DNA from: an uncultured Verrucomicrobiae bacterium
Lineage (GTDB): Bacteria > Verrucomicrobiota > Verrucomicrobiia > Chthoniobacterales > UBA10450
DNA: 64,000 bases
Assembly (NCBI GenBank): GCA_963772365.1
Contig: CAVYXA010000004.1
Location: forward strand, 32,001-96,000
Reading direction: 5' to 3'
Shown here piece after piece: positions 1,583 through 37,164 of this stretch. The position numbers were made by a program, and so were the translations under genes. Every line of letters begins with the position of its first letter. Position 1 is the first letter of the stretch. Below the pieces are notes generated by a model. The model was given only the letters and a program-made list of their open reading frames with translations, was not told the DNA's origin and searched no databases.

Positions 1583-4500
1583 GTGGGTTCGAAGGCTCGC
1601 GGAAAAGAATGTGTTACTGCGCCGTTTGAGACGGGCTGCGTAGAGGTTCGTGGCGCGCGTCAGAACAATCTGAAGGGGATCAATGTCGATCTTCCGCTGG
1701 GGAGATTGACCGTCGTTACCGGCCCGAGCGGTTCCGGAAAATCGAGTCTCGCCTTCGAAACGATTTACGCCGAGGGCCAGCGCCGTTACGTCGAAACGTT
1801 CAGCCCGTACATGCGGCAATTCCTCGATCGCATGGATAAGCCGCGCGTGGACGACATCCGTGGCATCCCGCCAGCAATCGCCATTGAGCAGTCGAACCCT
1901 GTCAAGACATCGCGCTCGACGGTCGGCACGATGACGGAGATCAACGATTATGTAAAGCTGTTCTGGCCGCGCGTGGCTAAGGCGTTTTGCCCAAGCTGCG
2001 GTCGCGAAATCCGCCCGGAGACGGCGAGATCGATCGCGGATGAAATCTTTCGCGTGTTCGGAAGCGACCCTCAACTCAATCCTCTCCGTGGCCAGGGAGA
2101 GGAAGTCGCGAAGCGACAGGTCAGGATTGAATCGAACGCTCTGCCCGGGACCGTGCTTATCACCTTCTGGGTCTCAGTTCCCGCAAAAACTGAACCGAAG
2201 AAATTCTTCGGATTTCTCCAGCAGCAAGGTTATCTGCGCGTCTGGATCGACGACCAAATCGTCCGGGTAGATGTCGAGCCAAAGAAGACGCTGCGGCTCG
2301 GCGCGCGGGTTCAGGTCGTTCAGGATCGGATCGCGATCACAGCTGAAAATCGCGCACGTCTCATCGAAGCGATCGAGACTGCGCTTCGGTTTGGTAAGGG
2401 AAAGCTCAATGTAATTCCGCTCGGTTCTGCTCCTCATCCCTCATCCCTCATCCCTTATCCTTTCTCGACCGGCTGGCATTGCGCGCATTGCGATCTGGAT
2501 ATCCGTCCGCCGACTCCCGGTCTGTTCAGCTTTAACAATCCGCTTGGCGCGTGTCCCGAATGTCGCGGATTCGGTAGAACGATTACGATCGACCTGAACA
2601 AAGCGATCCCGGATCGCTCTTTGTCAATCAAACAAGGCGCAGTCCGCGTTTTTCGCGGTAACGAATTTGGCGAATCGCAAAAAGATTTGCTCCGGGCCTG
2701 CGCGCGAGAAGAGATCGATGTCTATCTTCCCTTCGAGGAATTACCCAAGGCAGATCAAACTTTCGTGATCGAAGGGGAAAAGCGCTCCGGTGAATATACC
2801 GACGAAGATTACGAGAACGACCGCTGGTACGGGGTGCGCGGTTTTTTCCGCTGGCTCGAAGCGCAGACCTATAAGATGCACATGCGAGTCTTGCTTAGCC
2901 GCTATCGGGCTTACACGACATGCCCAAGCTGCAACGGCGGACGGTTTCAACCGGATGCGCTCAATTACAAACTCGCCGCTGTAGCGGCGGTCTATGGCCG
3001 TCGCAAACTTTCCTCTGAAGACGGAGACGCTCATAAAGCGCCGCTACAGCTAGCTCTTCCCGACTTTACAGCGCTTTCGATCTCTGATGCGCAGGATTTC
3101 TTGGCGAAGATCGACATCAACCATAGCGATTCGACCGCGCAAATGCTGCACGGTGAGATTTGCGCACGGTTGAATTACTTGTGCGAAGTCGGTGTCGGTT
3201 ATCTCACGCTAGATCGATCCACCCGCACATTGAGTGGCGGCGAAGTGCAACGGGTCAATCTGACAACCTGTCTCGGCGCCTCGTTGGTCAACACGCTTTT
3301 CGTCATGGATGAACCGAGCGTGGGATTGCATCCGCGCGATGTTGGTCGGCTCGTCCGCGTGATGCACAATTTACGAGACAAAGGCAACACACTGCTGGTA
3401 GTCGAACACGAAGAGCAGATCATCCGAGCGGCCGATAACTTGATCGACATCGGCCCGGGTCGCGGGGAACGCGGGGGCGAATTGGTTTACACTGGAACGT
3501 TGGATGAATTTGTAGGGCAGGCGCTCCGCCTGCCGAACTTAAGAATGGCAAGCGATGCGCTTGCTCTACAATCGCGTTCGCTCACGGCCGATTATTTGAG
3601 CGGTCGCAAATCGATTCCCGTTCCGAAGAAACGGCGGAGATCGAAATCGTCGATCAAGATCGCCGGCGCGCCGAGCACAATCTCAAGAACATCGAGGTCG
3701 ACCTTCCGTTAGGCATTTTCACCTGTGTGACTGGCGTGTCGGGCTCCGGAAAATCGACACTGATCCACGATGTGCTTTATCGAAATCTGCTCATCGCCAA
3801 GGGCCAAACGTCCGACCAGCAAGCCGGCGCCTGCAAATCGGTGACCGGCGCGCATCGGATCGATGAACTCATCATGGTCGATCAATCTCCGCTGGCCCGC
3901 ACGCCGCGTTCGACTCCGATTCTTTATCTCGGTCTTTACGATCGGGTCCGCGAATTATTCGCCACCCAACCGGAAGCGATGGCCCAGGGACTTACCGCCA
4001 GCGCGTTCTCATTCAATTCTGGCGGCGGGCGTTGCGAACGTTGTTCCGGCACCGGCTTCGAAAAGATCGAGATGCAATTCCTGAGCGATCTCTATGTGCG
4101 TTGCGCGGAGTGTGAAGGCAAACGATTCCAGCCCCATGTGCTGAAAGTGAAACTGCACGGCAAATCGATTCACAACGTGCTGGAACTTACCGTCACCGAA
4201 GCTATTCAGTTCTTTGCCCAAATCGGCGAACTGAAAACGCTATCCGAGCCGCTCGATGTGCTCGAGGAGGTAGGACTCGGTTATCTCAAATTGGGGCAAC
4301 CTCTCAACACTTTGAGCGGCGGCGAATCGCAGCGATTGAAGCTGGTGCGGCATCTCTCAGAAAACGCCGAGCACCCAACGCCTAACGTGGAACGCGGAAA
4401 CGGAGAAGGAATTGGCAATCTGTTTATCTTCGACGAACCAACGACCGGTTTGCATTTTGATGATGTCGCGATGTTGCTGAAACTATTTCAGCGCTTGGTG

Positions 4501-7476
4501 GATGCCGGGCATTCCATCGTCGTAATCGAACACAATCTGGAAGTGATTAAATGCGCGGATTGGATCATCGATCTTGGACCCGAGGCTGGCGATGACGGCG
4601 GCGATGTCGTGGCGACAGGCACACCGGAGCAAGTAGCGAAGATCGAGAAGTCGCATACCGGAAGATTTCTTAACCGTGTCATCTCGAGCGAAGCGAAGCG
4701 CAGTCGAGAGATCCCGCAACGATATCAAACCGTTACTGCCCCGGGATCACCGGGCTTCGGTCAGAATGACAACATTGAATTTGCCCGAGCGGCGGAAATA
4801 TCGCCGCGTTTCCAGGCGAATGGCTCGACAGGGGCGATCGCGATTCACGGGGCGCGCGAGCACAACCTGAAAAACATCGACATCAAAATCCCGCGCGATC
4901 AGATGGTCGTGATCACGGGTTTGAGTGGCTCCGGTAAATCGACGCTCGCGTTTGACATCTTGTTAGCCGAAGGACAGCGCCGCTTTCTGGACAGCATGTC
5001 GCCTTATGCGCGTCAGTTTGTCGAACAACTCGAGAAACCCGATGTCGATCTTGTTGAGGGCTTACCACCCAGCGTCGCGATCGAACAGCGCGTCACCCGC
5101 GGTGGTGGGAAATCAACCGTGGCTACGGTGACGGAAGTTTATCATTTCCTCCGATTGTTGTTTGCCAAGACGGGGACACAGTTTTGTCCCGACTGCGATT
5201 TGCCGGTCGAAAAACAAAGCCTGGCTGCGATCGTGAGGCAGGTGGAGACGGCGGTCCGGCGGCGGCCGGACGGGCCGCTGAAAGTGCTTGCGCCGTTGGT
5301 CAAGGCTCGCAAAGGTTTTCACACCGACGTGGCGCGTTGGGCGGAGAGACAGGGATTCGATACGCTGTATGTCGATGGTACGCTGCTGCCCGTCACGCAG
5401 TTTCGGAAGCTCGAGCGATTCAAGGAGCACACCATTGATGTCGTCGTTGGCGTTATCGATGCCAAACGAATTTTGAAATCGCGCAATCTGACGCAGCGCG
5501 CGCTCGATATCGGTCGCGGCACGGCGCACCTGCTGGATGCGAAAAATCGCCTCACGGTGATGAGCACGGAGATGAGCTGTCCCGGATGCGGGCGGGCGTT
5601 TGAAGAACTCGATCCGCGTTTGTTCTCGTTCAACTCGCCTCACGGCGCGTGCGAAGAGTGTGGCGGGTTTGGCGAAATTTGGAACCAGGATTTGCAGACG
5701 GGCCAAAGCGACGATGGTGAATCCGCTCTCGAGAATGAGCTAGTGGCCGAGCGCGAATCGGAATGGATCGACGAAGAAGAAGCGCGCGAGTGCCCGAGCT
5801 GTCACGGCTCGCGCTTGAACGAAGTTGCTCGCCATGTGCGGGTGCAGGGATGCACTATCGACGATTTCACAAATCTTTCGGCCAGCGAAGCTGCGCGTAA
5901 GATCGACAAGCTGAAATTTCACGGAACACAAAAAACTATCGCATCGGAATTATTGCCGGAAATTCGGCAAAGGCTGCGATTCATGGAAAACGTCGGGCTC
6001 GGTTATCTCGCGCTGGGGCGATCGGCCAAGACCTTGAGCGGCGGCGAATCGCAACGCATCCGTCTGGCTGCGCAGCTTGGGTCGAATCTGCGCGGTGTAC
6101 TTTACGTGCTCGATGAACCCACGATCGGTCTGCATCCACGAGACAATCTGCGCTTGCTCGAAACGCTCATCGCGTTGCGAAAAAAGGGAAACTCGCTTGT
6201 GATTGTCGAGCACGACGAAGAAACAATGCGGCGCGCCGATCACATTGTCGATCTTGGGCCGCGGGCGGGAATCCATGGCGGCGAGGTCGTAGTGAGCGGA
6301 ACGTTGCGAGACATCGAGCGGGCGAAAAATTCCGAGACCGGGCGCTGTTTGAAAACGCCGCTTTGTCATCCAATTCGCAAATCGCGACGGTCGCTGCGCA
6401 CGGTCGAGAACTGGATCGAGATTCGAAAGGCGCGCGTCAATAATCTGAAAGATGTTGATGTTCGGTTCCCAGTGGGACGCTTATCGGTCATTACCGGAAT
6501 TTCCGGCTCCGGGAAATCGACTTTGATGCACGATGTGATCTGGCCCGCTGTGCGCGATGAATTGGAAGCGAAAAAGCGCGGCGGCAATGGCGACTTGTTC
6601 AAACTTGTCAGCGGCGCGACCGAGATCGAAGCCGTTTACGAAGTCGATCAATCGCCCATCGGCAAAACGTCGCGCTCGACCCCGGGCACGTACATCAAAG
6701 TGTTCGATGAGATTCGAAACCTTTACGCTCAACTCCCTGTCTCGCGCGTCCGCGGTTATTCAGCCAGCCGCTTTTCGTTTAATGCCGAAGGCGGCCGTTG
6801 CGAAGCGTGCAAAGGGCAGGGCGTGATCAAGCTGGAGATGAATTTTCTGCCGAATGCGCTGGTGCCGTGTGAGGAATGCGGCGGGCGCCGCTACAATCCG
6901 CAAACGCTCGAAGTTCTCTACAACGAAAAATCGATTGGTGACGTAATGGAGATGACGATTGAAGAAGCGGCGCAATTTTTCTCGGCGCATCCAAAGATTG
7001 CGCGGTCGCTCGATTTGTTAGTCGAAACCGGTCTTGGTTATCTCAAGCTCGGCCAACCGAGCCCGACCTTGAGCGGTGGTGAAGCGCAGCGCCTCAAGTT
7101 GGTCACACAGCTCAAACGCGGAGTGAATCGCGCCGCCAACGAGCGGATCCGGAAAATGCGGAAACCGGGATCGACATTATATTTGCTGGAGGAACCAACC
7201 ATCGGCCTTCACATGGCCGACGTGGAATTATTGCTCAACGTGTTGCATCGCCTCGTCGATGAAGGGAACACCGTAATCGTGATCGAGCACAATCTCAGCG
7301 TGATCGCCGAGGCTGATTACATTGTCGATCTTGGACCGGAAGCGGGAGCAGAGGGCGGCGAAATCGTCGCAACGGGCACGCCGGAAGAAGTGTCCAAAAA
7401 TCGAATCAGCCGCACAGCACCGTTCTTGCGAGAAATCTTGAAATCATCACGCACCAAAACAGCGGTGTCATCCTGA
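1583..7476 (+). CDS. uvrA: Double-length (tandem-fused) excinuclease ABC subunit A, split by a single-base frameshift near 3670
   Basis: Four Walker A segments (GPSGSGKS, GVSGSGKS, GLSGSGKS, GISGSGKS), four LSGGE signatures and CxxC zinc fingers. At 3662-3730 a frame change restores A-x-EHNLKNIEVDLPLGIFTCVTGVSGSGKS, joining ORFs 1583..3712 and 3727..7476. Confidence 0.93.
2067..2127. repeat. Palindromic repeat family A, copy inside uvrA
   Basis: accctcaactcaatcctctccgtggccagggagagg...; aligns with 9337-9396 and 27194-27253. Confidence 0.85.
2432..2459 (+). repeat. Heptamer tandem repeat (CCTCATC)x3 + CCTTATC inside uvrA
   Basis: Read directly; encodes PHPSSLIPYP. Confidence 0.85.
2978..3050. 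repeat. GTAG-type REP-like palindrome inside uvrA
   Basis: 12-bp terminal inverted repeat gctgtagcggcg / cgccgctacagc. Confidence 0.85.
3510..3571. repeat. GTAG-type REP-like palindrome inside uvrA
   Basis: ttgtagggca...tgctctacaa; first 25 nt identical to the minus-strand copy inside pqqB (36715-36739). Confidence 0.88.
4363..4397 (+). repeat. Degenerate heptamer repeat (AACGYNN)x5 inside uvrA
   Basis: aacgccg agcaccc aacgcct aacgtgg aacgcgg. Confidence 0.65.
4677..4771. repeat. GTCAT...ATGAC palindromic element (family C) inside the uvrA linker
   Basis: tgtcatctcgagcgaagcgaagcgcagtcgagagatccc...agaatgaca; matches copies at 7467, 19450 and 58092. Confidence 0.85.
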
Positions 7477-7558
7477 GCGAAGCGAAGCGGAGTCGAAGGA
7501 TCCCGCGAAACCGCGATGGAGCTTTGCCACGGGATTCCTCGACTTCACTCGGAATGAC
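7467..7558. repeat. GTCAT...ATGAC element (family C), supplying the uvrA stop codon
   Basis: gtcatcctgagcgaagcgaagcggagtcgaaggatccc...gggattcctcgacttcactcggaatgac. Confidence 0.9.
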
Positions 7559-7573
7559 GGCGAAGATTTCGCC

Positions 7574-9313: not shown

Positions 9314-9336
9314 GCATCCTGATACTAACGGTAGCG

Positions 9337-9396
9337 ACCCTCACCTCAGTCCTCTCCCTGGCCAGGGAGAGGCGGACGCGAAGCGCCGGTGAGGGT
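9337..9396. repeat. Palindromic repeat family A, 60-bp intergenic copy
   Basis: Terminal inverted repeat ACCCTCACC/GGTGAGGGT, with internal hairpin cctctccctgg/ccagggagagg. Confidence 0.9.
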
Positions 9397-9827: not shown

Positions 9828-10799
9828 ATGGCGAACAAGGCGCGGTTCTGGCGGAATCTCATTCTTATTGGTCTCGCGCACGTAGCGCTAATCATTGGGC
9901 TGATTCGTTGGAGTCGGGAACCAAAGATTGCAACGAGCCAAAGCGTCGTTTGGCTCAACGGCGGTGGCGCAGGCGATGGCAATGTTGCCAACGTTAAGAG
10001 TGCTCCAGCGCCGGAGATGGCGGTCGTCCCGACGCCTGAACCGAACCCGGTAGAAAAACTTGAAGAGGACCGCCCAACACTCGTTTCCGCCAAGAGCGAA
10101 ATCCAATTGCCTACCGCTACACCAAAACCGACTCCTAAACCGACGCCCAAGCCAACTCCGAAGGTCACGCTCAAGCCCGAAGTAAAGGAAACGCCAAAAC
10201 CAAAACCGAAACCGAAACATAAGCCAACACCCAAACCAAAACCAAAGGAGAAGAAAAAGACTGTTGTGGCAAAAGCTTCTCCTAAACCGACTCCCAAAAA
10301 GAAAGCGACTCCCGAGAAGTCAGATGACGAGGAGGAAAAGCAAGACGTCGATGCTGAGAAAAAGCGGATCGCCATGGCGGCGCTGGGAAAAAGTGACGCG
10401 AGTGAAGATGAAAAGCCGAAGAAAGCGACTGCTGCGAACAGCGGCTCCGGCAAAGGAACATCATCCGGCGCTGGCCGTCACAGTGGCGGCGCGGGCGCAG
10501 CCTCGCAATTCGGTTGGTACGGCGAGATGTTGCACGATCGTTTTCACAGCGAATGGATTCAGCCCACTACTGAAGTTTCGGCAGGCGAAAAAATTTCCGT
10601 GCTGGTGAAGATTCGAATTGAGAAAGATGGAACTGTTTCGCAATTTGAGATTATCAAGCCTTCCGGGAATGCAACGGTGGATGGATCCGTGGCAGCCGTT
10701 ACGAAGCGCGTGACACAAGTCGATCCTCTGCCCGACGGGCTCGGAAGCGACGGGCATTACGACGTACGAATCAACTTCGAACTCAATTCCGAACAATGA
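9828..10799 (+). CDS. TolA/TonB-family energy transducer
   Basis: N-terminal transmembrane segment containing His, Pro/Lys-rich linker, TonB_C-like C-terminus (IRIEKDG...SGNATVDGS). Confidence 0.8.
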   Translation: MANKARFWRNLILIGLAHVALIIGLIRWSREPKIATSQSVVWLNGGGAGDGNVANVKSAPAPEMAVVPTPEPNPVEKLEEDRPTLVSAKSEIQLPTATPKPTPKPTPKPTPKVTLKPEVKETPKPKPKPKHKPTPKPKPKEKKKTVVAKASPKPTPKKKATPEKSDDEEEKQDVDAEKKRIAMAALGKSDASEDEKPKKATAANSGSGKGTSSGAGRHSGGAGAASQFGWYGEMLHDRFHSEWIQPTTEVSAGEKISVLVKIRIEKDGTVSQFEIIKPSGNATVDGSVAAVTKRVTQVDPLPDGLGSDGHYDVRINFELNSEQ

Positions 10800-11969: not shown

Positions 11970-12980
11970 TTACAACAGCGCCAGCGATTTGCCTTCGCGT
12001 CCAGTGACTTGATCCATGGTGCATTGGCGGGGCGATTTGTCGGGTCGCCAGCGGAGAAATTTCGTCCCGTGCCGGAACCGGCCGCCTGTGAAATGATCGT
12101 AGGCAACTTCGACTACACTCTTAGGTTCGACAGGTTCCCATTGGCCGCTTCTCTCAGTGCTCCAGCGACTCGGCCCGCCTGGCGCATTGCCGGTGAATCC
12201 CGGTGGGTTGCGCAATGCTTCAAATTTTTTTGTGAGCGAACGGCGTTCGCTTGCCTTGATTGCGGATGTGAAGCCAACATGATGAAGTAATCCATCATCG
12301 CCGTACAAACCGAGCAAAAGCGAGCCGAGAACTTTGCCGCTGCTGGCATAACGAAATCCGCCCACTACGCAATCCGCGCTCCGGATCTTTTTTACCTTCA
12401 CCATCGCGGTCCGTTCACCGGAAGCGTAGGGCAGATCGAGACGTTTTGCGATTACGCCATCGAGATCGCCGCCGGCTTTAGCAAACCATTTCTGTGCCTG
12501 CTTCAGGTTCGTCGTGGCTGGCGACAGTTTCACAGCCCCTGTGAGTTCGAATTTATCGAGCTGGACCCGCCGCACGCGAAGCGGCTGTTTTAAATACGAT
12601 TGTCGATCCTGCGCGAGCAGATCGAATACGACATAGATGGCCGGTTGTACTTTCGCTAATTTCGCAACCCGGCTGGCGGCGGGATGCAAACGCAATTGCA
12701 ATTCGTCAAAAGAAAGTCTGCCACCAACCGCGATTGCTAGCTCACCATCGACGACGAAATTCCGACCCGGCAATTTTCTCACCGATTCCACCACATCAGG
12801 AAAATAGCGCCCTAGCGGTCGTCCGTTTTTCGATTGCAGATAAACATCGTTCCCGTTTCGAAAAGCTATGCAGCGAAACCCATCCCATTTCGGTTCGTAC
12901 TGCCAATTATCACCGACTGGAATTTCCTCCACTGTGCGCGCCTCCATGGGCGGAAGAGGCGGTTTAATTGCAAATTTCAT
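11970..12980 (-). CDS. ATP-dependent DNA ligase, LigC-type
   Basis: Motif I EPKWDGFR, VDGEL, DGVIAK, KVK, ADCVVGGFR, FRHGTKFLRWRPDK. Confidence 0.92.
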   Translation of the reverse strand: MKFAIKPPLPPMEARTVEEIPVGDNWQYEPKWDGFRCIAFRNGNDVYLQSKNGRPLGRYFPDVVESVRKLPGRNFVVDGELAIAVGGRLSFDELQLRLHPAASRVAKLAKVQPAIYVVFDLLAQDRQSYLKQPLRVRRVQLDKFELTGAVKLSPATTNLKQAQKWFAKAGGDLDGVIAKRLDLPYASGERTAMVKVKKIRSADCVVGGFRYASSGKVLGSLLLGLYGDDGLLHHVGFTSAIKASERRSLTKKFEALRNPPGFTGNAPGGPSRWSTERSGQWEPVEPKSVVEVAYDHFTGGRFRHGTKFLRWRPDKSPRQCTMDQVTGREGKSLALL

Positions 12981-14699: not shown

Positions 14700-14777
14700 A
14701 GTCGTTGATTTTTTATTATCATCGCCTGGGCCGGGTCGAGATCACATTCCGTGAATTTGAGGCAGAGCGAATCGATC

Positions 14778-15176
14778 TCAATCGCCCGCAGACGTTGCAG
14801 AGAAGACGCCGCGGTTTTTTCTCTCCGCCCGGGTCCGATTCGCCTCGAGCTCAGCCAAATGTTTTTCTGACCATCGACAAAGCGCGTGCAATGGCTCGAT
14901 CAATGTTCGTCCGAGGCGAGTCAACGAATACTCAACCTTGGGCGGAACGACGGGGTGGACCTTTCGCTGGACTAGTCCGTCGCGCTCGAGACTTCGCAGA
15001 GTTTGAGTAAGCATCTTCTGCGAGATGCCGCCGATCTCACGCTGGAGCGTTGCGTAGCGCATCGTTCCGCGAGCGAGAATCTGGATGATGAGCGCGGTCC
15101 ATTTGTCCGCAATCCGATCGAGGACGAGCCGGGAAGGGCACTGCGGCTCCAGAACAGAGGGAGGGGATTTCGCCAT
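14778..15176 (-). CDS. HxlR-family winged-helix transcriptional regulator
   Basis: CPSRLVLDRIADKW, ISQKMLTQTLRSLERDGLV, PPKVEYSLT. Confidence 0.92.
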   Translation of the reverse strand: MAKSPPSVLEPQCPSRLVLDRIADKWTALIIQILARGTMRYATLQREIGGISQKMLTQTLRSLERDGLVQRKVHPVVPPKVEYSLTRLGRTLIEPLHALCRWSEKHLAELEANRTRAERKNRGVFSATSAGD

Positions 15177-19435: not shown

Positions 19436-19449
19436 AAATCAAAAGCCTA

Positions 19450-19542
19450 GTCATCCCGAGCGCAGCGAAGCGGAGTAGAGGGACCCCGGTGCGTTGGCTT
19501 TCCGGTTTTGCAACGGGATTCCTCGGCTCCGCTCGGAATGAC
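19450..19542. repeat. GTCAT...ATGAC element (family C), intergenic
   Basis: gtcatcccgagcg...cgctcggaatgac inverted ends. Confidence 0.9.
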
Positions 19543-19547
19543 AGTCT

Positions 19548-26152: not shown

Positions 26153-27517
26153 GTGCACGCGTTTCATTACCGCGATGGCAAACTTCACGGCGAAGATGTC
26201 GATCTTACCTGCGTGGCCGAGCAGTTCGGGACGCCGCTGTATGTATATAGCGCGAGCACAATTCTGGATCATTACCAACGCCTCGATACCGCTTTGGCTC
26301 CGCTCGATCACTTGATTTGTTACGCGGTCAAGGCCAACTCGAACGGCGCGATCTTAAAATTGCTGGGCGATGCCGGCGCGGGGTTCGACATCGTTTCCGG
26401 CGGCGAACTCTTCCGCGTGCTCAAAACCGGCGGTGATCCAGCCAAATGTACATTCGCAGGTGTCGGCAAATCGCGCGCCGAAATCGAGTACACGCTCGAC
26501 CAGGGCGTTTACAGTTTCAATGTCGAAAGCGAAGCCGAGCTGGAATGCATCGACCAAATCGCGGCCGAAAAAAAAGTGCAGGCGCCGATCGCATTGCGCG
26601 TCAATCCCGATGTCGATCCTAAGACACATCATTACATTTCGACCGGGTCGCACGAGAACAAGTTCGGAATTTCGCTCGATCGGGTCGAAGCGATCTACAA
26701 TCGCGCCGCGAAGATGGACAACATCGACATTGTCGGAGTCCAAATGCACATCGGCTCCCAGATTACTGAGGCGAAACCGTTTGCCGAAGCGATCGGGAAA
26801 GTTGCCGGAATCGTGCGCCAGCTGAAATCGAAACACGCCATCAAGTTTTTCAGCATCGGCGGCGGCATGGGAATCATTTATCGCCGCGCATTAGAGAGCG
26901 GCTCGGGCCAATGGTGGCACAAGCATGGTCCCGCATGCGCGGGATCCGCATTCAGCATCCGCGATTATGCCGATGCCATCGTGCCGTCGCTGCGTAAACT
27001 CAATGTCCGGATCCTGGTTGAGCCGGGCCGGTTTCTGGTTGGAAATGCCGGCGTTCTTCTCACCCGGGTTTGTTACGTCAAACAGACCGGCCAAAAGAAA
27101 TTTGCGGTTGTCGATGCTGGAATGAACGATCTCATCCGGCCGGCCCTATACCAGAGTTATCACGAGATCGTGCCCGTTAAAGAGTGTGGCAACACCCTAA
27201 CCTCAATCCTCTCCCTGGAAGGGAGAGGCGGACGCGAAGCGCGGGGTGAGGGTCGAGCCACACCGACCGAGAAGATCGACATTGTCGGACCGGTCTGTGA
27301 ATCAGGAGATTTTTTCGCACTCGACCGGGAGATGCCGCCGCTGCGTCAGGGCGACCTGCTCGCCATCATGAGCGCCGGCGCATATGGATTCACGATGGCC
27401 TCGAATTATAATTCGCGTCCCTTCCCCGCCGAAGCGCTGATTCGCGGGGACCAGTCCAGACTAATTCGTGAGCGACAAACGTGGAGCGATCTGGTGCGCG
27501 GTGAGATCGACAATTAG
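26153..27517 (+). CDS. lysA: Diaminopimelate decarboxylase
   Basis: YAVKAN, HIGSQI, EPGRFLV, GPVCESGD, GAYGFTMASNYNSRP. Confidence 0.96.
   Translation: MHAFHYRDGKLHGEDVDLTCVAEQFGTPLYVYSASTILDHYQRLDTALAPLDHLICYAVKANSNGAILKLLGDAGAGFDIVSGGELFRVLKTGGDPAKCTFAGVGKSRAEIEYTLDQGVYSFNVESEAELECIDQIAAEKKVQAPIALRVNPDVDPKTHHYISTGSHENKFGISLDRVEAIYNRAAKMDNIDIVGVQMHIGSQITEAKPFAEAIGKVAGIVRQLKSKHAIKFFSIGGGMGIIYRRALESGSGQWWHKHGPACAGSAFSIRDYADAIVPSLRKLNVRILVEPGRFLVGNAGVLLTRVCYVKQTGQKKFAVVDAGMNDLIRPALYQSYHEIVPVKECGNTLTSILSLEGRGGREARGEGRATPTEKIDIVGPVCESGDFFALDREMPPLRQGDLLAIMSAGAYGFTMASNYNSRPFPAEALIRGDQSRLIRERQTWSDLVRGEIDN
27194..27253. repeat. Palindromic repeat family A, 60-bp in-frame copy inside lysA
   Basis: accctaacctcaatcctctccctggaagggagaggcggacgcgaagcgcggggtgagggt. 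Confidence 0.9.
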
Positions 27518-27549: not shown

Positions 27550-29565
27550 TTACGGAGCCTCCAAACTCCAACCTGACGGAAGCGTTGGACCGTAGGCGCC
27601 ACCGATGTAGGCACTGTTGTTCAGATACCAGATCGCTGTCCGGCGGGTGCTGGTATTCTGCAACAAATAATCAGGCTTTTCGTCCGAGTTAAAATCGGCC
27701 ACGCCGACCAATTCATAGCCACTCGCAATCGTTGGCCCATAGACGCCCCTGAGAAACGTAACCCCGGAGAAATACCAGATCGCTGTCTGACGCGTGCCGC
27801 GGTTGAAGAACGCTACATCCACCGAGCCGTCCCCATCGAAGTCCGCTATACCAGCCTTTCTCCAGCCAACCGGAATAGTGGGCCCGTATGTGCCCCCGAT
27901 GTAAACGTTGTTGTTCAGGTACCACACCGCCGATCGGCGCGTGCTCGCATTGAAAAGCACGTAATCAGGTTTTCCGTCGCCATTAAAATCGCCGACAGCG
28001 ACCAAGGCCCATCCGCTCGGGAGACTGGGCCCGTAAGCGCCGCTGATGTAAACGTTATTGTTGAGGTACCAGATCGCCGTCTGGCGTGTGCTGGGGTTGA
28101 ACAGGGCGTGATCCGGGTGGCCGTCGCGATTGAAATCGGCTACATCGATTACGCTCCAGCCAACCGGCAGAGTCGGAGCATAAGCCCCGCCGATATAAAC
28201 GTTGTTATTCAAATACCACACTGCCGTCTGGCGCGTGCTTCCGTCATAGAGCAAGTAATCTGGGTGGCCGTCACCGTTGAAATCGTAGGTTGCTTGCGAG
28301 GGAGGCGTGGAGCCGAATTCGAAGGCGCCCATGTCCACGATGCCGTTCGCGATACGGCGGTTGCCATCCAGGTCGGTGCCTGTGGTCATCCAGGTCTGAT
28401 TGGTTCCTGTGTCAATGCACGGCGAGCCGCTACCAAGATGGTACCCGGTCGCAAAACCGGGGTCAGAAGCGATGTTGCCGGCGCCGGGAGGCAGGGGAGT
28501 TGAGTCGCAGTGGTCAAACGTCGCTGCCCCATACGGGTTGAGGTAATAGTTAGGATCAGTGGCGGCAGTGTTACCATAGATGATTGTGTTCCGAATCTGA
28601 CTGCCATAGGCGAGACCTCCTCCGTTGGAGAAATTGCCATAAAGTGTGTTGCCAGAGACGGTGCTGGACTCCAGAATCCCGCCGCTGTTGAAATACACGC
28701 CGCCGCCCACCGCCCAGTTGGCGCCTCCGGGGTCGGTATGGGCGTTGTTGCCGGTGATGAGACAGTTTCGAACAAGACCATCCACGTTCGCCGTCATGTA
28801 AACTCCGCCGCCGTTGGCATACCAATGTCCATAGGCCGTGTTGCCGCTGATCGTGCAGTTTTGCACTGAGCCGTTGTTGGCGTTGATCCCGGCGCCGTTC
28901 GCGTAATAGCCGGTCAGGGTGTTGTTGGTGACGGTGGAGTGGTCAATCTGACTTTCATCAATAGCATAGATGCCGCCACCCTCGGCGAACGCCCCATACT
29001 GGTAGCTATTTGTGGATGTGACGGTATTCCCGCTGATCATACAGTGAGAAACGGTTCCTCCGTTACAATAGACACCGCCACCCTTTGGTGCATCACCTAC
29101 CGCCTGATTGTTGGTGATCACGCAGTTCGTTAGGGTGCCGCCAACACAGTAAACGCCGGCGCCAAGCTCCGCCGTTCCATTGGCAATCGTCAGGCGGGAA
29201 ATGGTGGCGGTACTGGAAGTGATATTGAAAATGCGGAAAGGCATCACGGAGTTGCGCTGCACGGTCAACAGATTTACGCCGGGGCCATTGATCGTCAGGT
29301 GTTTGTTAATTAACAACTCACCACTCGTGAGGTTAATCATGGTAACACCAGCAGCGAAGTTAATCACATCGCCGGACGCCGCATTAAGGATCGCCTGCCG
29401 CAGTGATCCCGCGCCGCTGTCGTTACCATTGGTAACAGTAAGAGTTGCCGCCGGCGCATCGGTCGCATTTAATAGGAGGGCGGAGATCACGCAAGCCAGA
29501 TAAGAACACCAGTGCGTCGGCAAATACCGGTTATGACAAGGGGTTGTTAACATGATCTTTTTCAT
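27550..29565 (-). CDS. Secreted beta-helix (choice-of-anchor-like) protein with C-terminal FG-GAP/VCBS repeats
   Basis: DSGAGSLRQAI, GGGVY repeats, GSPCIDTG...DMGAFE, five DFxxD repeats followed by AIWY/AVWY. Confidence 0.85.
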   Translation of the reverse strand: MKKIMLTTPCHNRYLPTHWCSYLACVISALLLNATDAPAATLTVTNGNDSGAGSLRQAILNAASGDVINFAAGVTMINLTSGELLINKHLTINGPGVNLLTVQRNSVMPFRIFNITSSTATISRLTIANGTAELGAGVYCVGGTLTNCVITNNQAVGDAPKGGGVYCNGGTVSHCMISGNTVTSTNSYQYGAFAEGGGIYAIDESQIDHSTVTNNTLTGYYANGAGINANNGSVQNCTISGNTAYGHWYANGGGVYMTANVDGLVRNCLITGNNAHTDPGGANWAVGGGVYFNSGGILESSTVSGNTLYGNFSNGGGLAYGSQIRNTIIYGNTAATDPNYYLNPYGAATFDHCDSTPLPPGAGNIASDPGFATGYHLGSGSPCIDTGTNQTWMTTGTDLDGNRRIANGIVDMGAFEFGSTPPSQATYDFNGDGHPDYLLYDGSTRQTAVWYLNNNVYIGGAYAPTLPVGWSVIDVADFNRDGHPDHALFNPSTRQTAIWYLNNNVYISGAYGPSLPSGWALVAVGDFNGDGKPDYVLFNASTRRSAVWYLNNNVYIGGTYGPTIPVGWRKAGIADFDGDGSVDVAFFNRGTRQTAIWYFSGVTFLRGVYGPTIASGYELVGVADFNSDEKPDYLLQNTSTRRTAIWYLNNSAYIGGAYGPTLPSGWSLEAP

Positions 29566-29719
29566 ATTTTTTCCAAAGATTGATTGTGGGGCGAGAAGCA
29601 ATTTGATCTTGGGGGAGGCACTTGTGGATATTCTCGCTGGAATGGAACGGCCTTTTTACGCACTTTCCGCCAGAAACGCAAGAAAAAAATTCTAGGATCG
29701 AGCCAGGCCGAATGGTGTT

Positions 29720-30045
29720 TGCCAATCGCGCAGGAAGCGTTTGTCCGTAGGCACCGCCAATAAAGACGTTGTTGTTCAATACCAAATCGCCAGCTGGCGC
29801 GTGCTGGTATTAAACGGGGCATAATCGGACTTGCCGTCGCGGTTAAAGTCCGCTGTGCCAGTCAAGATTTAACCGGTGGCGATGGTTGGGCCATAGACGC
29901 CGCCGACAAACACATTGTTATTCAAATACCAGATCGCGGATTGGCGAGTCGCAGCGTTGAAGAGCAGGTAATCGGTTTTGCCGTCGCCGTTGAAATCGCC
30001 GACAGCCACCAATTCCCCAGCCGCTGGGCAGCGTTGGGCCGTATG
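29720..30045 (-). pseudogene. Degenerate FG-GAP repeat fragment
   Basis: VGDFNGDGKTDYLLFNAATRQSAIWYLNNNVFVGGVYGPTIATG, then a stop, ADFNRDGKSDY, and a frameshifted LNNNVFIGGAYGQTLP. Confidence 0.8.
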
Positions 30046-30084
30046 CGCCGGCATCGGGAAATGTCCCACCGGGTTGTCCGCGAC

Positions 30085-31303: not shown

Positions 31304-33292
31304 ATGAAACACACGTTTTTTCTTCACGCGCTCGTTGTCCTGTTTGGGATCAATTCTTCGCTCCATGCAGCGGTTAACGTCACGCAGGAGCACAACAACC
31401 TCTCGCGCGACGGCGTTTACGTCGATGCGGCCTTTACTGCATCCGCGGCCGCCAATCTGACCCGCGACCTCAACTTCAACGGGGCGATCTCGGGCAATAT
31501 GCTTTCCCAACCGCTCTACATTGAAGGCGGCCCAAATGGACCGATGGTGATTGCCGCGACGGAATCGAACAACGTCTACGCGCTGAATGCGATTACCGGC
31601 AGCATCATTTGGCAGCGTAACCTCGGTAACCCGGCGACGAGCGGTTTGCCGTGCGGCAACATCAATCCCCTCGGAATCAGCGATACGCCGGCTGTCGATC
31701 TTCCGTCCCGCGCGCTCTTTCTGGACGCCATGGTCGATACCGGAACTGCCAAGAAGCATCTTATTTTCTCACTGAATGTAGACACGGGCGCGACCAATCC
31801 CGGTTGGCCAGTGGATGTGAGTGCCGCGTTTCCATCATTTGATTCTCCCCATCACAACAATCGCGGCGCGCTCGCTGTAGTGAACGGTATCATCTACGTG
31901 CCATACTCGGGGCACTTCGGAGATTGCACTCCATACCGGGGTTGGGTCGTTGGCGTGCAGATCGACAATCCCTCGGCTGTCTTGGCTTGGTCCACGAGCG
32001 CAAACGGTGGCGGAATCTGGGGGCATTCCGGCGTAGCCAGCGACGGCACGAATATGTTCGTCATTACCGGCAACACGATCGGCACCGGCGGAACTTATAG
32101 CCAGGGCGAATCAATCATCCGGTTACAAGCCGGGCCGGTCTTCAACAACAACACCCAGAATTATTGGGCCCCCACTAATTGGTTCTCTCTCGACAATTCC
32201 GACTCCGATCTCGGTGGTTGCAGCGCCATGCTCCTCGATGTCCCCGGTGCGACGCCTTCCCAACTCGTCCTGGCTTTGGGCAAAGATCGTAACGCGTATC
32301 TGGTGGATCGCAATAATCTTGGCGGAATCACTTCGGCCATCGCGTCGATGAACGTCTCCAGTTCCACACTCCGCGGACAGTCTTCCTGCACCTATCACAC
32401 GAGCATGGGGACATATTTCACTTTCCGCGCCGGGACAAGCAACACCCTGGTCGCTTATCGGGTCAACCCCGGCAGCCCTCCCACCATGAGCAGCGCCTGG
32501 CTGGTGACACAATCCGGTGAAGGTTCGCCGTTCGTCACTTCCACTGACGGTACGAACAATTTCATTGTCTGGGCATGTGGCGCCGGCGGTTCGCAGCGAT
32601 TGAACGGTTACAACGCCGATACCGGCGCGCTGGTTTTTGCTGGCGGCGGATCGAACGAATTGATGAGTGGCACCCGGAAATGGAACACCGGAATCGCCGC
32701 ACGTGGCCGCATTTATTATCCCGCCGACAATCGCATCTACGCCTTCAAACTGCCGGTGCCCGAGCTTCAAGTTGCTTCTGCCGTTTCACGCAAAACGCAC
32801 GGCGCCGCGGGCGATTTCGATATTGAGCTTCCGCTTTCCGGCCCTCCCGGCGTCGAATGTCGCATCGGCGGCGCGACTAACGATTACCAGTTTGTCTTCA
32901 CGTTCAGCAACAATGTCGAAAGCGGGAATGCTACCGTGACCAGCGGAACCGGCACAGTGTCCGGCTCACCGACATTTTCCGGAAACACCATGACCGTGAA
33001 TTTGACCGGCGTGACCGACATGCAAACGATTACAGTCACTCTGAGCGGCGTAACCGATCAGTTCCTCCAGGTCTTGCCCGACACACCCGTGAGCGCAAAC
33101 ATGTTGATCGCCGATACCAACGGCAATGGAACCGTAAACTCCTCAGATGTCGCCCAGACCAAGGGGCAGGTTGGCCAGACGGTGACCAGCGGCAATTTCC
33201 GCACCGACGTCAACGCCAACGGTAAAATCAACTCAACTGATGCAGCGATCGTAAAATCGCACTCGGGCGGCGCGGTCCGGGCACGGATGTAA
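31304..33292 (+). CDS. Secreted PQQ-like beta-propeller protein with C-terminal SRKTHG/Ig-like and dockerin-like domains
   Basis: NNVYALNAITGSIIW propeller repeat, GGGIWG; tail DTNGNGTVNSSD...DVNANGKINSTD. Confidence 0.8.
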   Translation: MKHTFFLHALVVLFGINSSLHAAVNVTQEHNNLSRDGVYVDAAFTASAAANLTRDLNFNGAISGNMLSQPLYIEGGPNGPMVIAATESNNVYALNAITGSIIWQRNLGNPATSGLPCGNINPLGISDTPAVDLPSRALFLDAMVDTGTAKKHLIFSLNVDTGATNPGWPVDVSAAFPSFDSPHHNNRGALAVVNGIIYVPYSGHFGDCTPYRGWVVGVQIDNPSAVLAWSTSANGGGIWGHSGVASDGTNMFVITGNTIGTGGTYSQGESIIRLQAGPVFNNNTQNYWAPTNWFSLDNSDSDLGGCSAMLLDVPGATPSQLVLALGKDRNAYLVDRNNLGGITSAIASMNVSSSTLRGQSSCTYHTSMGTYFTFRAGTSNTLVAYRVNPGSPPTMSSAWLVTQSGEGSPFVTSTDGTNNFIVWACGAGGSQRLNGYNADTGALVFAGGGSNELMSGTRKWNTGIAARGRIYYPADNRIYAFKLPVPELQVASAVSRKTHGAAGDFDIELPLSGPPGVECRIGGATNDYQFVFTFSNNVESGNATVTSGTGTVSGSPTFSGNTMTVNLTGVTDMQTITVTLSGVTDQFLQVLPDTPVSANMLIADTNGNGTVNSSDVAQTKGQVGQTVTSGNFRTDVNANGKINSTDAAIVKSHSGGAVRARM

Positions 33293-33364
33293 TCTTTTTT
33301 GCCCGTCGGTTGTTCGCCAGGCGTTAGATTGCTTTGCGAAATCCTTTGACGTAAAATTGACGCT

Positions 33365-33550
33365 GTGGATGCAATCGCCGAAAAACTGAACACGAAGCTG
33401 AGTACATGGAAGCCAGAGGTTTCACGTGAAGTACGCGCTGTGGTCTCCGACGTGATCGAGGCCGCCGACAACGACACGCTCGACCTGCAACGCTCGCGGG
33501 CTGTCGAGCAGGAAGTGCTCGACCAATTGGATGAGTCCGCATCCAGGTGA
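33365..33550 (+). CDS. Putative antitoxin
   Basis: Small acidic ORF overlapping the start of a PemK-like toxin gene. Confidence 0.6.
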   Translation: MDAIAEKLNTKLSTWKPEVSREVRAVVSDVIEAADNDTLDLQRSRAVEQEVLDQLDESASR

Positions 33551-33986
33551 GGTTTGGCTAGCCGACCTCGGGTTGGCTGCGAAGACCCGGGCAGTTGTGA
33601 TTCTCTCGCGGCACGATCCAGAGGCGCCCCGCGCACTTGTCGAGTACGTGCCGCTGACGATACAAAACCGCGGGAGTCGATACGAGGTCATCCTGCCACA
33701 ACTGCGTTTTCTACGCGAGACGAGCATCGCGAATGTGCAAGGCATCGCCTCGATTCCGTTGGCTCGACTCGAGCGAAAGCTCGGCGAACTAGCTCCCGAC
33801 ACGCTCATAGCAATCCGCAAAGTGAGCAACGCGCAACGGACGTCACCCAAATCCAGTCTACAAGCTGGTCAGCCCACGAGCGACACTAATGCTCCGCACG
33901 ACGTAAGCGCCAACGGTACAATCAACTCGACTGATGCAACGATCGTGAAATCCCACTCGGGCGGCGCCGTTCGTCCGAATGAGTAA
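33531..33986 (+). CDS. PemK/MazF-family toxin with a fused dockerin-like tail
   Basis: PGEVWLADLG..KTRAVVILS, VPLT, ANVQGIASI..RLERKLGEL; ends DVSANGTINSTDATIVKSHSGG. Confidence 0.85.
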   Translation: MSPHPGEVWLADLGLAAKTRAVVILSRHDPEAPRALVEYVPLTIQNRGSRYEVILPQLRFLRETSIANVQGIASIPLARLERKLGELAPDTLIAIRKVSNAQRTSPKSSLQAGQPTSDTNAPHDVSANGTINSTDATIVKSHSGGAVRPNE

Positions 33987-33991
33987 GTCGC

Positions 33992-35236
33992 CTAACGACA
34001 GACGTGCGTTTCCGGGTTCATTCGATATTTCCAGTCAGACCCGTTTGAGCCAGCTTCGCTCAAAGCGGAATCGACGAGCGAGCGATTCGCGGACAATGTG
34101 CAGACCGGATCCGTGTTGGCGGCGTTGCCGGTGAGCAACGCCGCTTGGCAACGGCAGCCACCGAAATCGATTTCTTTTTTCGGACAACTCCGACACGGCT
34201 CCGGCATCCAATCGGTTCCGCGAAACCGGTTAAAGCTCTCCGATTCTCGCCAGATCCAATCGAGCGACTGCTCCCGGACATTTTCGAATTGCATATCCGG
34301 AATCGCCGATGATGCCGTCGGACAGGGCGAGACGTCGCCGATCGGATTGACGGTGAGATAGCGCTGGCCCCAGCCGTTTAGGCACGGTTTCGGCCGCGTT
34401 TCGTAATAATCGGGCAGGACATAAAAGATGTCGATCTTACTGGCTAGCCGTTCTTTTGCCGCAGCCGCGATTTCACGGGCACGCTCGACTTGTTCGCGCG
34501 TCGGCAATAACGCGGCCCGATTCAAAAATGCCCAGCCGTAGAATTGCGTGTTGGCCAGCTCGACCCGATCGGCGCCGAGCTCTTCTGTCAGATCGATCAT
34601 CTCTTCCAACTGATCGATGTTGTGCCGATGCAAAACGAAATTAAGGCTGAGAGAAATGCCGGCGCTGCGAATTAGCGCCGCGGCGTGGAGCTTTCGTTGA
34701 TGTGCTCGCGCGCCTGCGATCTCATCGGCAAGATCGACATCGGCAGCTTGAAAACTGAGTTGCACAGAATCAAGGCCGGCGTCCCGCAATTCATTGACCC
34801 GCTTTTCATCGAGGATGATGCCGCTGGTGATCAGATTGGTGTAGAGATTGGATTCCCGAGCCGCGCGAATAATCGCGGCAAGATCGCGCCGAACCAGCGG
34901 TTCACCGCCGGAAAAGCCAACCTGCAATACGCCCAGCGCTGCCGCTTCACGAACAACGCGGAGCCATTCCTCGGTGGTCAATTCCGCATGAAGTGCTGTA
35001 GCGTGCGCTGTCCTCAGCGCATCTGTTGATGGCGCCGCTCGGCTTCCGCTGAGGAGAGCGGACGCTACACTGACCGGATTCGAGCAATACGGACAATGCA
35101 GCGGACAACGATGTGTCAGCTCCGCCAGCAATGCGTATGGACGCGGCGGCGCTGTAGGGGAAGCTGATAGCTTCCCGCGTGGCTGCGTTTTAGGGAAAGT
35201 GTCAGTTTCCCCTACAGTTTTCTTTGTCGTGCTCAT
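33992..35236 (-). CDS. pqqE: PqqA peptide cyclase (radical SAM/SPASM)
   Basis: LLAELTHRCPLHCPYCSNP, ANTQFYGWA, PKPCLNGWG, GGCRCQA. Confidence 0.96.
   Translation of the reverse strand: MSTTKKTVGETDTFPKTQPRGKLSASPTAPPRPYALLAELTHRCPLHCPYCSNPVSVASALLSGSRAAPSTDALRTAHATALHAELTTEEWLRVVREAAALGVLQVGFSGGEPLVRRDLAAIIRAARESNLYTNLITSGIILDEKRVNELRDAGLDSVQLSFQAADVDLADEIAGARAHQRKLHAAALIRSAGISLSLNFVLHRHNIDQLEEMIDLTEELGADRVELANTQFYGWAFLNRAALLPTREQVERAREIAAAAKERLASKIDIFYVLPDYYETRPKPCLNGWGQRYLTVNPIGDVSPCPTASSAIPDMQFENVREQSLDWIWRESESFNRFRGTDWMPEPCRSCPKKEIDFGGCRCQAALLTGNAANTDPVCTLSANRSLVDSALSEAGSNGSDWKYRMNPETHVCR
34995..35070. repeat. GTAG-type REP-like element inside pqqE
   Basis: 28 nt identical to intergenic 52892-52919; closes with acgctaca. 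Confidence 0.9.
35152..35217. repeat. GTAG-type REP-like element (66 bp) in the pqqE N-terminus
   Basis: 11-bp inverted repeat ctgtaggggaa / ttcccctacag. Confidence 0.88.
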
Positions 35237-35511
35237 GCGAACTCGATCAATTTTCGGCGCTGAAAATCCGAGAGCGTCTCCTGAACATCTGCTGCAATTG
35301 TGGCAGGATCGACATCGTATTCTTTGGCGAGGTCGCTGATGATTTCCCCAAGTACCCGCCCATCACAACGCGCCATGATTTCGTGAGCGGTTTCGTTCAG
35401 TTCGACGATCCCCTCTGGATGAAGCAGGACAGATTTACCGCTGGCATTATCAATCTGGAAGCGAACGCCCGGCGCAAGACGTGGCCGCATGTCGTCACGA
35501 ATTGTTTGCAT
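35233..35511 (-). CDS. pqqD: PqqA-binding chaperone (RRE)
   Basis: PRLAPGVRF, VLLHPEGIVELNETAHEI..CDG; overlaps the pqqC stop and the pqqE start. Confidence 0.92.
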   Translation of the reverse strand: MQTIRDDMRPRLAPGVRFQIDNASGKSVLLHPEGIVELNETAHEIMARCDGRVLGEIISDLAKEYDVDPATIAADVQETLSDFQRRKLIEFA

Positions 35512-36268
35512 AAGCATGATGAATTGCGTCCAGAATCGCCCAGAGCAGATCGCATTTGAACTGGAGCGCGCGAACGGCGGCTTCCTGTAGCTCGCGCGTG
35601 TTGCAATAACGCATGGTGATCTCGAGGGCTTCGGTCGAATCCCGCCGGGCTTGAGTAACCCGCCGCCGAAAATAATCGAGTCCACTTGTGTCGATCCACG
35701 TATAAAATTTTTCGAACGCGGCGAGACGCGTCGCCATCAAATCGGGCGCGAACAGTTCCGTGAGCGACGAGGCGATTGCGACCGGCCATGGCTCGCGTCG
35801 AGCGAAATTCACGTAGGCATCGACCGCGAACCGGACGCCGGGCAGAAGATGTCGATCCTGCAACAAATCTTCTCTCGATAATCCACACGCTTGGCCCAAT
35901 CGCAGCCAGGCTTCGATCCCGCCTTCTCTGATCGGATTGTCGCCTCGGCTGTCCTGAACCGATTGCCCCTGTGATCCGCTGAGGACAGCGGACTCTACAG
36001 CGTCGATCAGCCCGTCATGATCGACAATCCGATGGACCCAGACCCGCCGCACGTCGCGCTCGGGACAATTGGAAAGAATGGCGGCGTCTTTGATCGGGAT
36101 GTTGCGCTGGTAATAAAACCGGTTTGCCACCCAGCCGCGCAACGCTTCCTTCGAAAGCCGGCCCTCATTCATCGCAAGATGAAACGGATGTTTGTCGTGA
36201 TAAGCGCGTCCGCCGGTCTCGCGCAGTTTCTCGATGAAAATCTCGCGATCCCAAACCGTGGCGGTCAT
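35495..36268 (-). CDS. pqqC: Pyrroloquinoline-quinone synthase
   Basis: YHDKHPFH, WVANRFYYQRNIPIKDAAI, GGIEAWL, SSLTELFAP, FKCDLLW. Confidence 0.96.
   Translation of the reverse strand: MTATVWDREIFIEKLRETGGRAYHDKHPFHLAMNEGRLSKEALRGWVANRFYYQRNIPIKDAAILSNCPERDVRRVWVHRIVDHDGLIDAVESAVLSGSQGQSVQDSRGDNPIREGGIEAWLRLGQACGLSREDLLQDRHLLPGVRFAVDAYVNFARREPWPVAIASSLTELFAPDLMATRLAAFEKFYTWIDTSGLDYFRRRVTQARRDSTEALEITMRYCNTRELQEAAVRALQFKCDLLWAILDAIHHAYANNS
35935..36001. repeat. REP-like element inside pqqC
   Basis: tccgctgaggacagcggactctacagc resembles 35045-35070 and 52854-52882. Left boundary approximate. Confidence 0.7.
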
Positions 36269-37164
36269 AAAACGATTTCCATTCCATCGAATCCGATCTC
36301 AACTCCCGCCTTTTCGACTTGTTGTCGCTCCTCTGAGCCGGGCATCAGAATCGGATTGGTATTGTTGATGTGAGTGTAAACCTTCCGGCTTGCCGACAAA
36401 CTGCGCAACAAATCGAGAGACCCGTCGCGAATCGGCAAATGATGCATTTCCTGCGCGGTGCGCGCACCTGCCCGAACGGCAGATAACTCGTCGTTTGACC
36501 AAAAAGTTCCGTCGAACAGGATCACATCGGAGGCGTGGATTGCCTCGCGCAGATGATCTGTCAGTTCGCCAACCGCCGGCGCGATCACGGCACTCTTGCC
36601 GGAGTTTTCATCACGCAATTGAAAAGCAATGCTCTCGGGCAATGGAATCGCGGAAACGGAAATCTTCAGGCCGGGCAAGATTGAGCTTTGTAGGGCAACC
36701 GCTTCGGTTGCCGAGGCAGGCGGAGCGCCTGCCCTACAATTCGTGATGTCTGGGTTCAGGTCGCGCCATTCTATTCCGCAAAATTGTCTGAGCAGATTGT
36801 CGATCCAATTCAGCGCGATCCGCGTGGACCGATCGGCATAAACAAGCAACGGTTGCTCCCGTTGCCGCAGCAAAACCAGACCCAGCGCATGATCGATGTC
36901 CGCATTGGTGAGAAGAACGGCCGCGATGGGACTGTTCCGCAACGAATGGGGCCGCGGTTGCAGTTCTGGCGTGCTCTCGATTTGACGCGCCAGATCCGGT
37001 GAAGCGTTGATGAGAAACCAATGTCGATCATCGGCAGTGACGGCGACGCTCGACTGCGTCTGCGGTTGAATTTTTCCCGCGCGTGCGGCAAAGCAATTTG
37101 GACAAGCGCAATTCCATTGCGGCAGGCCGCCACCCGCCGCGCTCCCGAGAATTCGGATACGAAT
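36265..37164 (-). CDS. pqqB: PqqB hydroxylase (MBL fold), apparent ATT start codon
   Basis: Open frame [26 protein letters not shown]...TQSS...NASPD...DGTFW...THINNTNP; in-frame TAG two codons upstream of the ATT. Confidence 0.93.
   Translation of the reverse strand: [299 protein letters not shown]
36688..36739. repeat. GTAG-type REP-like element inside pqqB
   Basis: 10-bp inverted repeat ttgtagggca/tgccctacaa; same family as 3510-3571. Confidence 0.9.

Follow-up and report, generated by a model that had tools for sequence, protein, structure and literature searches.

In-frame palindromic repeats and RAYT cassettes in conserved genes of an uncultured Verrucomicrobiae bacterium and their candidate enzyme partners

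How do short palindromic repeats come to lie inside conserved genes without breaking them? The question is raised by a 64,000-nucleotide stretch of DNA from an uncultured Verrucomicrobiae bacterium (contig CAVYXA010000004.1 of assembly GCA_963772365.1), hereafter the window, in which several palindrome families occur both between genes and within uvrA, lysA, pqqB, pqqC and pqqE. The genome (G000; the window is G000:C4:32001-96000) comprises 3.35 Mb in 6 contigs with 55% G+C and is 90% complete; positions outside the window are given as contig:position. NCBI names for close homologs of one of its proteins ('Candidatus Udaeobacter sp.', 'Verrucomicrobia bacterium') suggest a Udaeobacter-like verrucomicrobium. 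The original prediction, made from the window sequence alone, saw here a multi-family repeat system that adds peptide loops to core enzymes in this lineage. More probably, the inserts are selfish hairpins which several unrelated nuclease-repeat pairs have spread, and within genes only copies that keep the frame, lack stops and fall in tolerant loops would survive. The family names A, C, G1-G10, T, P and X are working labels of this analysis or of the original prediction.

Repeats in frame in conserved genes of the window

All coordinates, identities and peptides given in the original prediction were found in the window sequence. Family A lies at 2065-2110 (uvrA), 9335-9380 (tolQ/tolR gap) and 27192-27237 (lysA), and is read as DPQLNPLRGQGEE in UvrA and as TLTSILSLEGRGG in LysA; as had been argued, DNA rather than peptide is the conserved unit, since the frames differ. 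The 25-nt identity between the GTAG elements of uvrA (3510-3534) and pqqB (36715-36739) is exact, and so is the 28-nt identity between pqqE (34995) and an intergenic site (52892). Family C occupies the uvrA linker (4675-4773) and four further sites (7464-7561, 19447-19545, 51611-51706, and 58089 onward), with a degenerate arm at 12977. Two dimers were absent from the prediction, one of G1 in uvrA (2978-3050) and one of G4 at the pqqE 5' end (35153-35218). The host genes and their inserts are as follows.

1583..3712, plus strand: uvrA (double-length type), 5' part, frame broken near 3670
3727..7476, plus strand: uvrA, 3' part
2065..2125, plus strand: family A (BoxC-like) in frame in uvrA, where the loop has 37 aa but only 10 aa in 12/20 relatives
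2978..3050, no strand: G1 GTAG REP (repetitive extragenic palindrome) dimer in frame in uvrA, where the loop has 27 aa but only 8-10 aa in 6/20 relatives; cognate RAYT at C1:514896
3509..3572, no strand: G2 GTAG REP dimer in frame in uvrA, where the loop has 29 aa but only 12 aa in 8/20 relatives; cognate RAYT at C1:1171327
4675..4773, no strand: family C (TGTC/CGTC-tagged) in the uvrA linker, which has 37 aa here, 12 aa in the only genome outside the family and 28-50 aa in 19/19 family members
26153..27517, plus strand: lysA, intact host gene
27192..27255, plus strand: family A in frame in lysA, where the loop has 39 aa but only 16-20 aa in 22/28 parsed relatives
33992..35236, minus strand: pqqE, intact host gene with two inserts
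34995..35070, no strand: G3 GTAG REP dimer in frame in pqqE, directly past the CxxxCxxC motif
35153..35218, no strand: G4 GTAG REP dimer, pqqE 5' end; cognate RAYT at C3:129793
35495..36268, minus strand: pqqC, intact host gene
35936..36001, no strand: G3 GTAG REP dimer in frame in pqqC
36265..37167, minus strand: pqqB, intact host gene
36687..36740, no strand: G2 GTAG REP dimer in frame in pqqB

Seed motifs had 3-75 real matches each, against none in the triplet-shuffled genome for 18 of the 19 motifs and one for the last, and folding of ten window elements against shuffles gave z = -2.3 to -8.3. The consensus arms of G1-G7 start with TGTAG or GGTAG and those of G10 with GGTAG or GGGAG; GTAG dimers fold end to end. 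An Rfam search of the window matched no family.

Orthologs had been expected to be shorter at the insert sites, and the loop alignments of UvrA, LysA and PqqB/C/E bear this out: the inserts amount to about 21-27 extra residues, at loops that are short in most relatives. PqqE gains 23 residues past the CxxxCxxC motif against 7/9 relatives (21 and 22 against the other two), PqqC gains 24 against 8/8 aligned relatives, and PqqB gains about 21 against 5 partly covered relatives. For LysA, 28 relatives were parsed and 1/29 was not, with G008 among the 22 short loops (genomes G003, G008 and G014 are counted in search tallies, and no conclusion rests on them). Placed against solved homologs, the inserts of PqqE, PqqC and LysA coincide with alignment gaps in 6C8V, 3HML and 3N2B, and we infer that these sites are surface loops.

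In the window uvrA is not one open reading frame (ORF), owing to a one-base loss near 3670 that lies outside every repeat. Were the host genes decaying pseudogenes, or the inserts assembly artefacts, such a break would be expected, and this assembly interrupts 23/251 conserved proteins, ValS included, at about one indel per 20 kb of coding DNA. Because splits are this common, the break in uvrA is likely assembly noise. Among the broken genes is valS, found as one full copy, and this speaks for sequencing indels; the inserts recur with open frames in independent genomes and metagenomes; 20/20 relatives compared have the uvrA match within an unbroken frame of 1878-2101 codons; and the lysA, pqqB, pqqC and pqqE products exceed their NCBIfam cut-offs. 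We therefore find decay or artefact scarcely credible. The uvrC gene at C1:1675353 also looks frameshifted.

Coding and non-coding copies across the genome

A genome-wide count of coding and non-coding copies had been proposed as a check. A scan with 18 position matrices, each threshold exceeding the top score of the reversed and complemented controls, counted 948 arms, grouped into 563 elements that lie mostly outside genes. By homology to the same-genus genome G001 (2.0 of about 3.6 Mb covered), 50 of the 563 elements lie inside orthologous genes, compared with 327 of 1200 random segments. A strict coding-score test called 56/563 elements, 827/2000 random segments and 8/1288 intergenic segments, at a recall of 25/38. 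We estimate the coding share of elements at about 10-25%; elements are 3-4-fold depleted in genes, and family densities are far apart between G000 and G001.

Among the 50 intragenic copies, 38 are in frame and open (in 32 distinct genes), where at most one third would be expected without selection (p = 8e-10). Of the other 12, 8 are frameshifted and 4 contain a stop; the corresponding background of 327 random segments comprises 299 in frame and open, 24 frameshifted and 4 with a stop.

Different repeats in the same loops

Across 20 relatives UvrA has ten length-variable regions, which carry different repeat-derived peptides. In the LysA loop, G032 has family A in a different frame and G001 has a G4 arm, and among metagenome loci long inserts were present in 7/73 parsed PqqC loci, from three families, and in 8/44 parsed PqqE loci, from at least two families. 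The occurrence of different families in the same loops of different relatives fits tolerated selfish DNA and not designed loops. It could be argued that the extra peptides or RNA hairpins serve the host genes as adaptations (regulatory hairpins or new surface loops), given that the same loops are filled repeatedly, that some inserts hold their family and frame across genera, and that folding is strong. However, single sites carry unrelated peptides and families, most relatives have empty alleles, and the elements are depleted in genes, which makes adaptation improbable. One system that adds loops, as first proposed, overstates the case: most copies are extragenic, and one loop may hold different repeats, in different frames, in different relatives. 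A metagenome scan for a near-identical strain found none (best segment, 75% identity).

Inverted arrays of 6-9-nt tandem repeats bracket most GxxExxY-type (PF13366, 7 matches) and four-helix (PF05635, 12 matches) genes, e.g., G000:C5:174729-175185 and C1:1307320. Similar short tandem arrays lie in frame in uvrA loops (window 2430-2460 and 4370-4410).

Candidate enzyme partners of the repeat families

The original prediction had suggested a search for RAYT or other HUH transposases, and RAYT genes flanked by cognate GTAG repeats are indeed present in the genome. Its Y1 matches (nine plus one more) include RAYT genes bracketed by arms of G1, G2, G4, G6 and G10. Those of G1, G2, G4 and G6 are free-standing single-domain genes, which the G10 RAYT subfamily mostly is not; the G2-bracketed RAYT has three loci, two of them apparently broken. 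Against the NF047646 cut-off of 80 bits, free RAYTs score 90.9, 83.4 and 91.7, with one below it at 77.3, and the RAYT domain found in RecG (see below) scores 89.5.

In G000 family C brackets a GIY-YIG gene (C3:612799), and in relatives it flanks 15/15 GIY-YIG genes picked from the top of 80 matches. Family A flanks 5/5 strong DUF559 matches (of 7) in relatives; one GIY-YIG and one DUF559 case were read by eye, below the matrix threshold. In G000 itself the two DUF559 matches lack flanking family A. The GIY-YIG protein of family C had no NCBIfam match. These neighbourhoods suggest at least three unrelated enzyme-repeat pairs (RAYT/GTAG, GIY-YIG/family C and DUF559/family A) rather than one system. 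The pairing of DUF559 with family A supplies a candidate enzyme for a BoxC-like repeat. A GIY-YIG partner of CGTC-type repeats was considered as a novelty and rejected, since it has been published as Ssn.

Other genes of these kinds were also noted. Small GIY-YIG genes lie between tRNA gene copies (G000:C1:376951-379128; C6:227-520), five of them in a 321-bp tandem array, with short palindromes inserted in duplicated tRNA parts. A long gene that resembles RAYTs and ends in GGGGTCAGG terminal repeats (TIRYT-like), plus broken copies, lies at G000:C1:1726000-1729000 and C3:398000-403600.

Whole RAYT cassettes in frame in housekeeping genes

The G10 arms lead outside the window, to the sole recG found in G000 (C1:529891-532605, 904 codons), in which left arm, RAYT and right arm follow one another in frame within the first helicase domain. 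In a structure model of this protein (predicted local distance difference test, pLDDT, 61.6; predicted template modelling score, pTM, 0.37), the blocks of the RAYT domain mostly reach a pLDDT of 75-91 and the arms stay below 50. The modelled RAYT domain resembles TnpA-REP (PDB 4ER8; Z 13.0, root-mean-square deviation 3.6, 144 aligned), and the rest of the model resembles RecG 1GM5 (Z 19.6). Sequence searches of the PDB did not return 4ER8, which came from the fold search alone. Automatic protein names at JGI already include 'RecG-like helicase/RayT'.

Family-wide, in 41 genomes, 35 of the 150 Y1 matches listed (32 more stand outside the list) lie in frames of at least 690 codons, G008 among them. 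Less one genome and one double match, these are 33 fused ORFs, whose hosts are CarB (9), RecG (7), MetH (6), AlaS (5), ValS (2), and ThrS, LeuS, ClpB and PurL (1 each); ten fusions were named by Pfam and the others by likeness to those ten. MetH is fused at two sites, and one gene carries both. Order-wide, 42/46 matches of the G10 subfamily lie in ORFs of at least 700 codons (34/151 genomes), and the subfamily is rarer across the phylum (24/301). A second RAYT subfamily (MPNHVH type, with other arms) is fused in frame in CarB, ValS, LeuS, ClpB and PurL (L328, L329, L334, L339).

The recG site in 28 parsed genomes (2/30 unparsed) holds the full cassette in 10, an arm remnant in 2 and nothing in 16, G003 among the last, and metH of G000 holds an arm remnant where relatives hold the cassette. 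The arms of the G10 cassette are open in the RAYT frame and near-identical free copies exist; in the free-standing twin of genome G010 the frame runs through both arms, and its ATG overlaps the upstream stop. In the RAYT tree lineages are mixed across host genes, and a single recG-borne clade was rejected (approximately unbiased (AU) test, p-AU 0.007, with the group fixed by host gene and tested after inspection of the tree).

RecG fusions have retained the HUH motif in 100/106 and the Tyr residue in 104/106 cases, and fused RAYTs show pN (nonsynonymous differences) of 0.21-0.32 against pS (synonymous differences) of 0.69-0.78 (pS saturated); sequence comparison thus indicates purifying selection on a fused RAYT with intact catalytic residues. 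The same two observations would suit a RAYT that has been domesticated and become immobile, working with its host protein (e.g., with RecG at forks) or serving the cell. RecG fusions, moreover, dominate the best 120 of 1199 longer proteins, and RAYTs have been reported as domesticated and vertically inherited (PMC5581495). Nevertheless the hosts are unrelated enzymes, most without a role in DNA, RAYT lineages mix across them, the cassette is missing or reduced to an arm in close relatives, and near-identical copies stand free, so that domestication seems unlikely.

For loops, some inserts are of unusual size (about 200 aa in RecG), and terminal pairing is perfect, as might be expected of elements removed before or after translation in the manner of introns or inteins, leaving mature proteins without them. 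Yet the frame is kept in 38/50 intragenic copies, which removal from RNA would not require, no HINT splicing domain was found by Pfam in 10 fusions (E <= 1e-4), and the window holds no Rfam family. Removal is accordingly rated as highly improbable.

Proposed model of spread and points against it

On the reading as selfish elements, the enzymes would cut hairpins on single-stranded DNA and move them, and the peptides of intragenic repeats would be translated and near-neutral. From its sequence, the fused RAYT is predicted to be translated together with its host as one protein. It may borrow the expression signals of its host, fold as a separate domain on disordered tethers, and move between host genes, and the cassette may collapse to gene-less arm pairs such as that at window 58188-58328. 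TnpA-REP of Escherichia coli is a monomer (PMC3479197), which by analogy would suit life as an inserted domain. We lean, if only slightly, towards regarding this RAYT subfamily as a frame-transparent, splice-free protein parasite: its arms would encode flexible linkers, and the cassette would land in loops of essential genes, become an active domain of RecG, CarB, MetH or tRNA synthetases, hop, and seed gene-less in-frame repeats. The anatomy of the in-frame RAYT cassette is itself well supported at the sequence level.

Several observations weigh against these readings. No cognate enzyme was found in G000 (90% complete) for G3, G5, G7-G9, T1, T2 and family A. Intragenic copies that are not open are commoner (12/50) than in the background (28/327). 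At 21/38 in-frame sites the net change against G001 is below 30 nt, and the same family and frame recur across several genera at the UvrA G1 site and linker and at the PqqC and PqqE G3 sites; many copies may thus be old and inherited, not recent. The uvrA gene is split in the window, and the RecG model is weak overall. A fixed cassette length was tried as a rule and rejected: arm-to-arm length modulo 3 is 0, 1 or 2 in 19 rows (two with mis-picked arms) and hence not a constant multiple of three, which leaves no fixed insertion rule.

Relation to known systems

The short in-frame repeats add a rich new case to a phenomenon already in print, and their families are of known kinds. That they were special to this lineage, as first supposed, does not hold, since in-frame multi-family GTAG repeats, uvrA included, were reported in 2013 for Opitutus terrae, with 70 intragenic rows from three GTAG families and both uvrA genes among them (Di Nocera et al. 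2013, PMC3733652). As in O. terrae, which is probably of the same phylum, there are several GTAG families with singles and dimers in frame; unlike there, the repeat sequences differ, non-GTAG families are added, and whole RAYT cassettes lie in host genes, of which the compared parts of PMC3733652 show none. Rickettsia palindromic elements, as cited in the same paper, are also palindromes in frame in functional genes, and are set apart, by their description, by the several families and enzyme partners found here.

With REPtrons (PMC3479197, PMC6006769; PDB 4ER8) the cassettes share an HUH plus Tyr domain above the NF047646 cut-off, inverted hairpin arms, and gene-less arm pairs elsewhere; they differ in that the G10 cassette appears to be translated through its own arms and lies mostly inside host ORFs. 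REPs in frame inside RAYT genes have been described, and long fused proteins were there discarded as fusions or annotation errors (PMC6006769). Fused cassettes had no description in the literature searched, with subscription journals outside its coverage, and the supplements of PMC6006769 or file 4 of PMC3733652 may list such fusions.

Family C recalls the Ssn GIY-YIG nucleases with NTS/SRM hairpins (Chenal et al. 2025, PMC11893778) in its small single-domain GIY-YIG gene with [CT]GTCAT-tagged hairpins around it, a likeness drawn from sequence. Its arms, however, are longer and fall outside the published SRM pattern, which matched 0/152 C1, 0/104 C2 and 0/71 C2b arms (18 genome matches against 13 in the control). 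Family A, a CCTCTCCC-loop-GGGAGAGG hairpin followed by GGTGAGGG, resembles the BoxC / PIT / intrastrand triplex motif (PMC4666352). It lies outside the strict E. coli consensus (TM-ECO, 0/28; 14/28 with a relaxed pattern made here), flanks DUF559 genes and is also coding, whereas the E. coli motif is described as always intergenic (PMC4666352).

Inteins with homing endonucleases carry a nuclease in frame at recurring sites of essential genes. The RAYT fusions do likewise, but the 10 searched have no splicing domain, and the cassettes sit in variable loops and not in conserved motifs.

Other repeats and iterated sequences

The remaining elements of the window lie at gene ends or between genes.

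7464..7561, no strand: family C across the uvrA stop codon
9335..9397, plus strand: family A, intergenic tolQ/tolR
14759..14790, plus strand: G6 GTAG arm at gene end
19447..19545, no strand: family C, intergenic scpB/glmM
44693..44721, minus strand: G4 arm at the sixA 3' end
45208..45239, minus strand: G5 GTAG arm, intergenic
51611..51706, no strand: family C1 element, pstC/pstS gap
52817..52921, no strand: G2/G3 arms, intergenic pstS/lipB
58089..58175, no strand: family C, intergenic
58188..58328, no strand: G10 element, equal to both arms of the recG RAYT cassette (G000:C1:530874-531490) without the RAYT gene

A second palindrome is nested in family C elements at G000:C3:414804-414978 and C1:1707524-1707648, from which repeats appear to insert into each other. 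The 9-mer AGATCGACA has 1279 genome copies (both strands, window included) against 66 expected under an order-3 Markov model, 1103 of them in called genes in several frames and both orientations; G001 has 512 copies in 2.0 Mb. This 9-mer resembles a highly iterated or uptake-type motif. A 683-codon ORF (window 27550-30017) contains 147-nt coding repeats and had no NCBIfam match at 1e-15, and a proline/lysine-rich repeat lies downstream of tolQ-tolR (window 10123-10297).

Implications

How REPs spread in vivo is described as unresolved (PMC8266576), and RAYTs are thought not to copy themselves (PMC5581495). Since a single site occurs filled, empty or with a remnant, one enzyme has free and fused twins, and lineages are mixed across hosts, RAYT mobility becomes testable. 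The short in-frame repeats show where core enzymes tolerate extra sequence in their loops, and in this group they will interfere with annotation and phylogeny. Of greater weight are the in-frame RAYT cassettes: if the reading of the RAYT subfamily as a protein parasite is true, they would live much as inteins do, but without splicing, and would be a natural engine of domain insertion.

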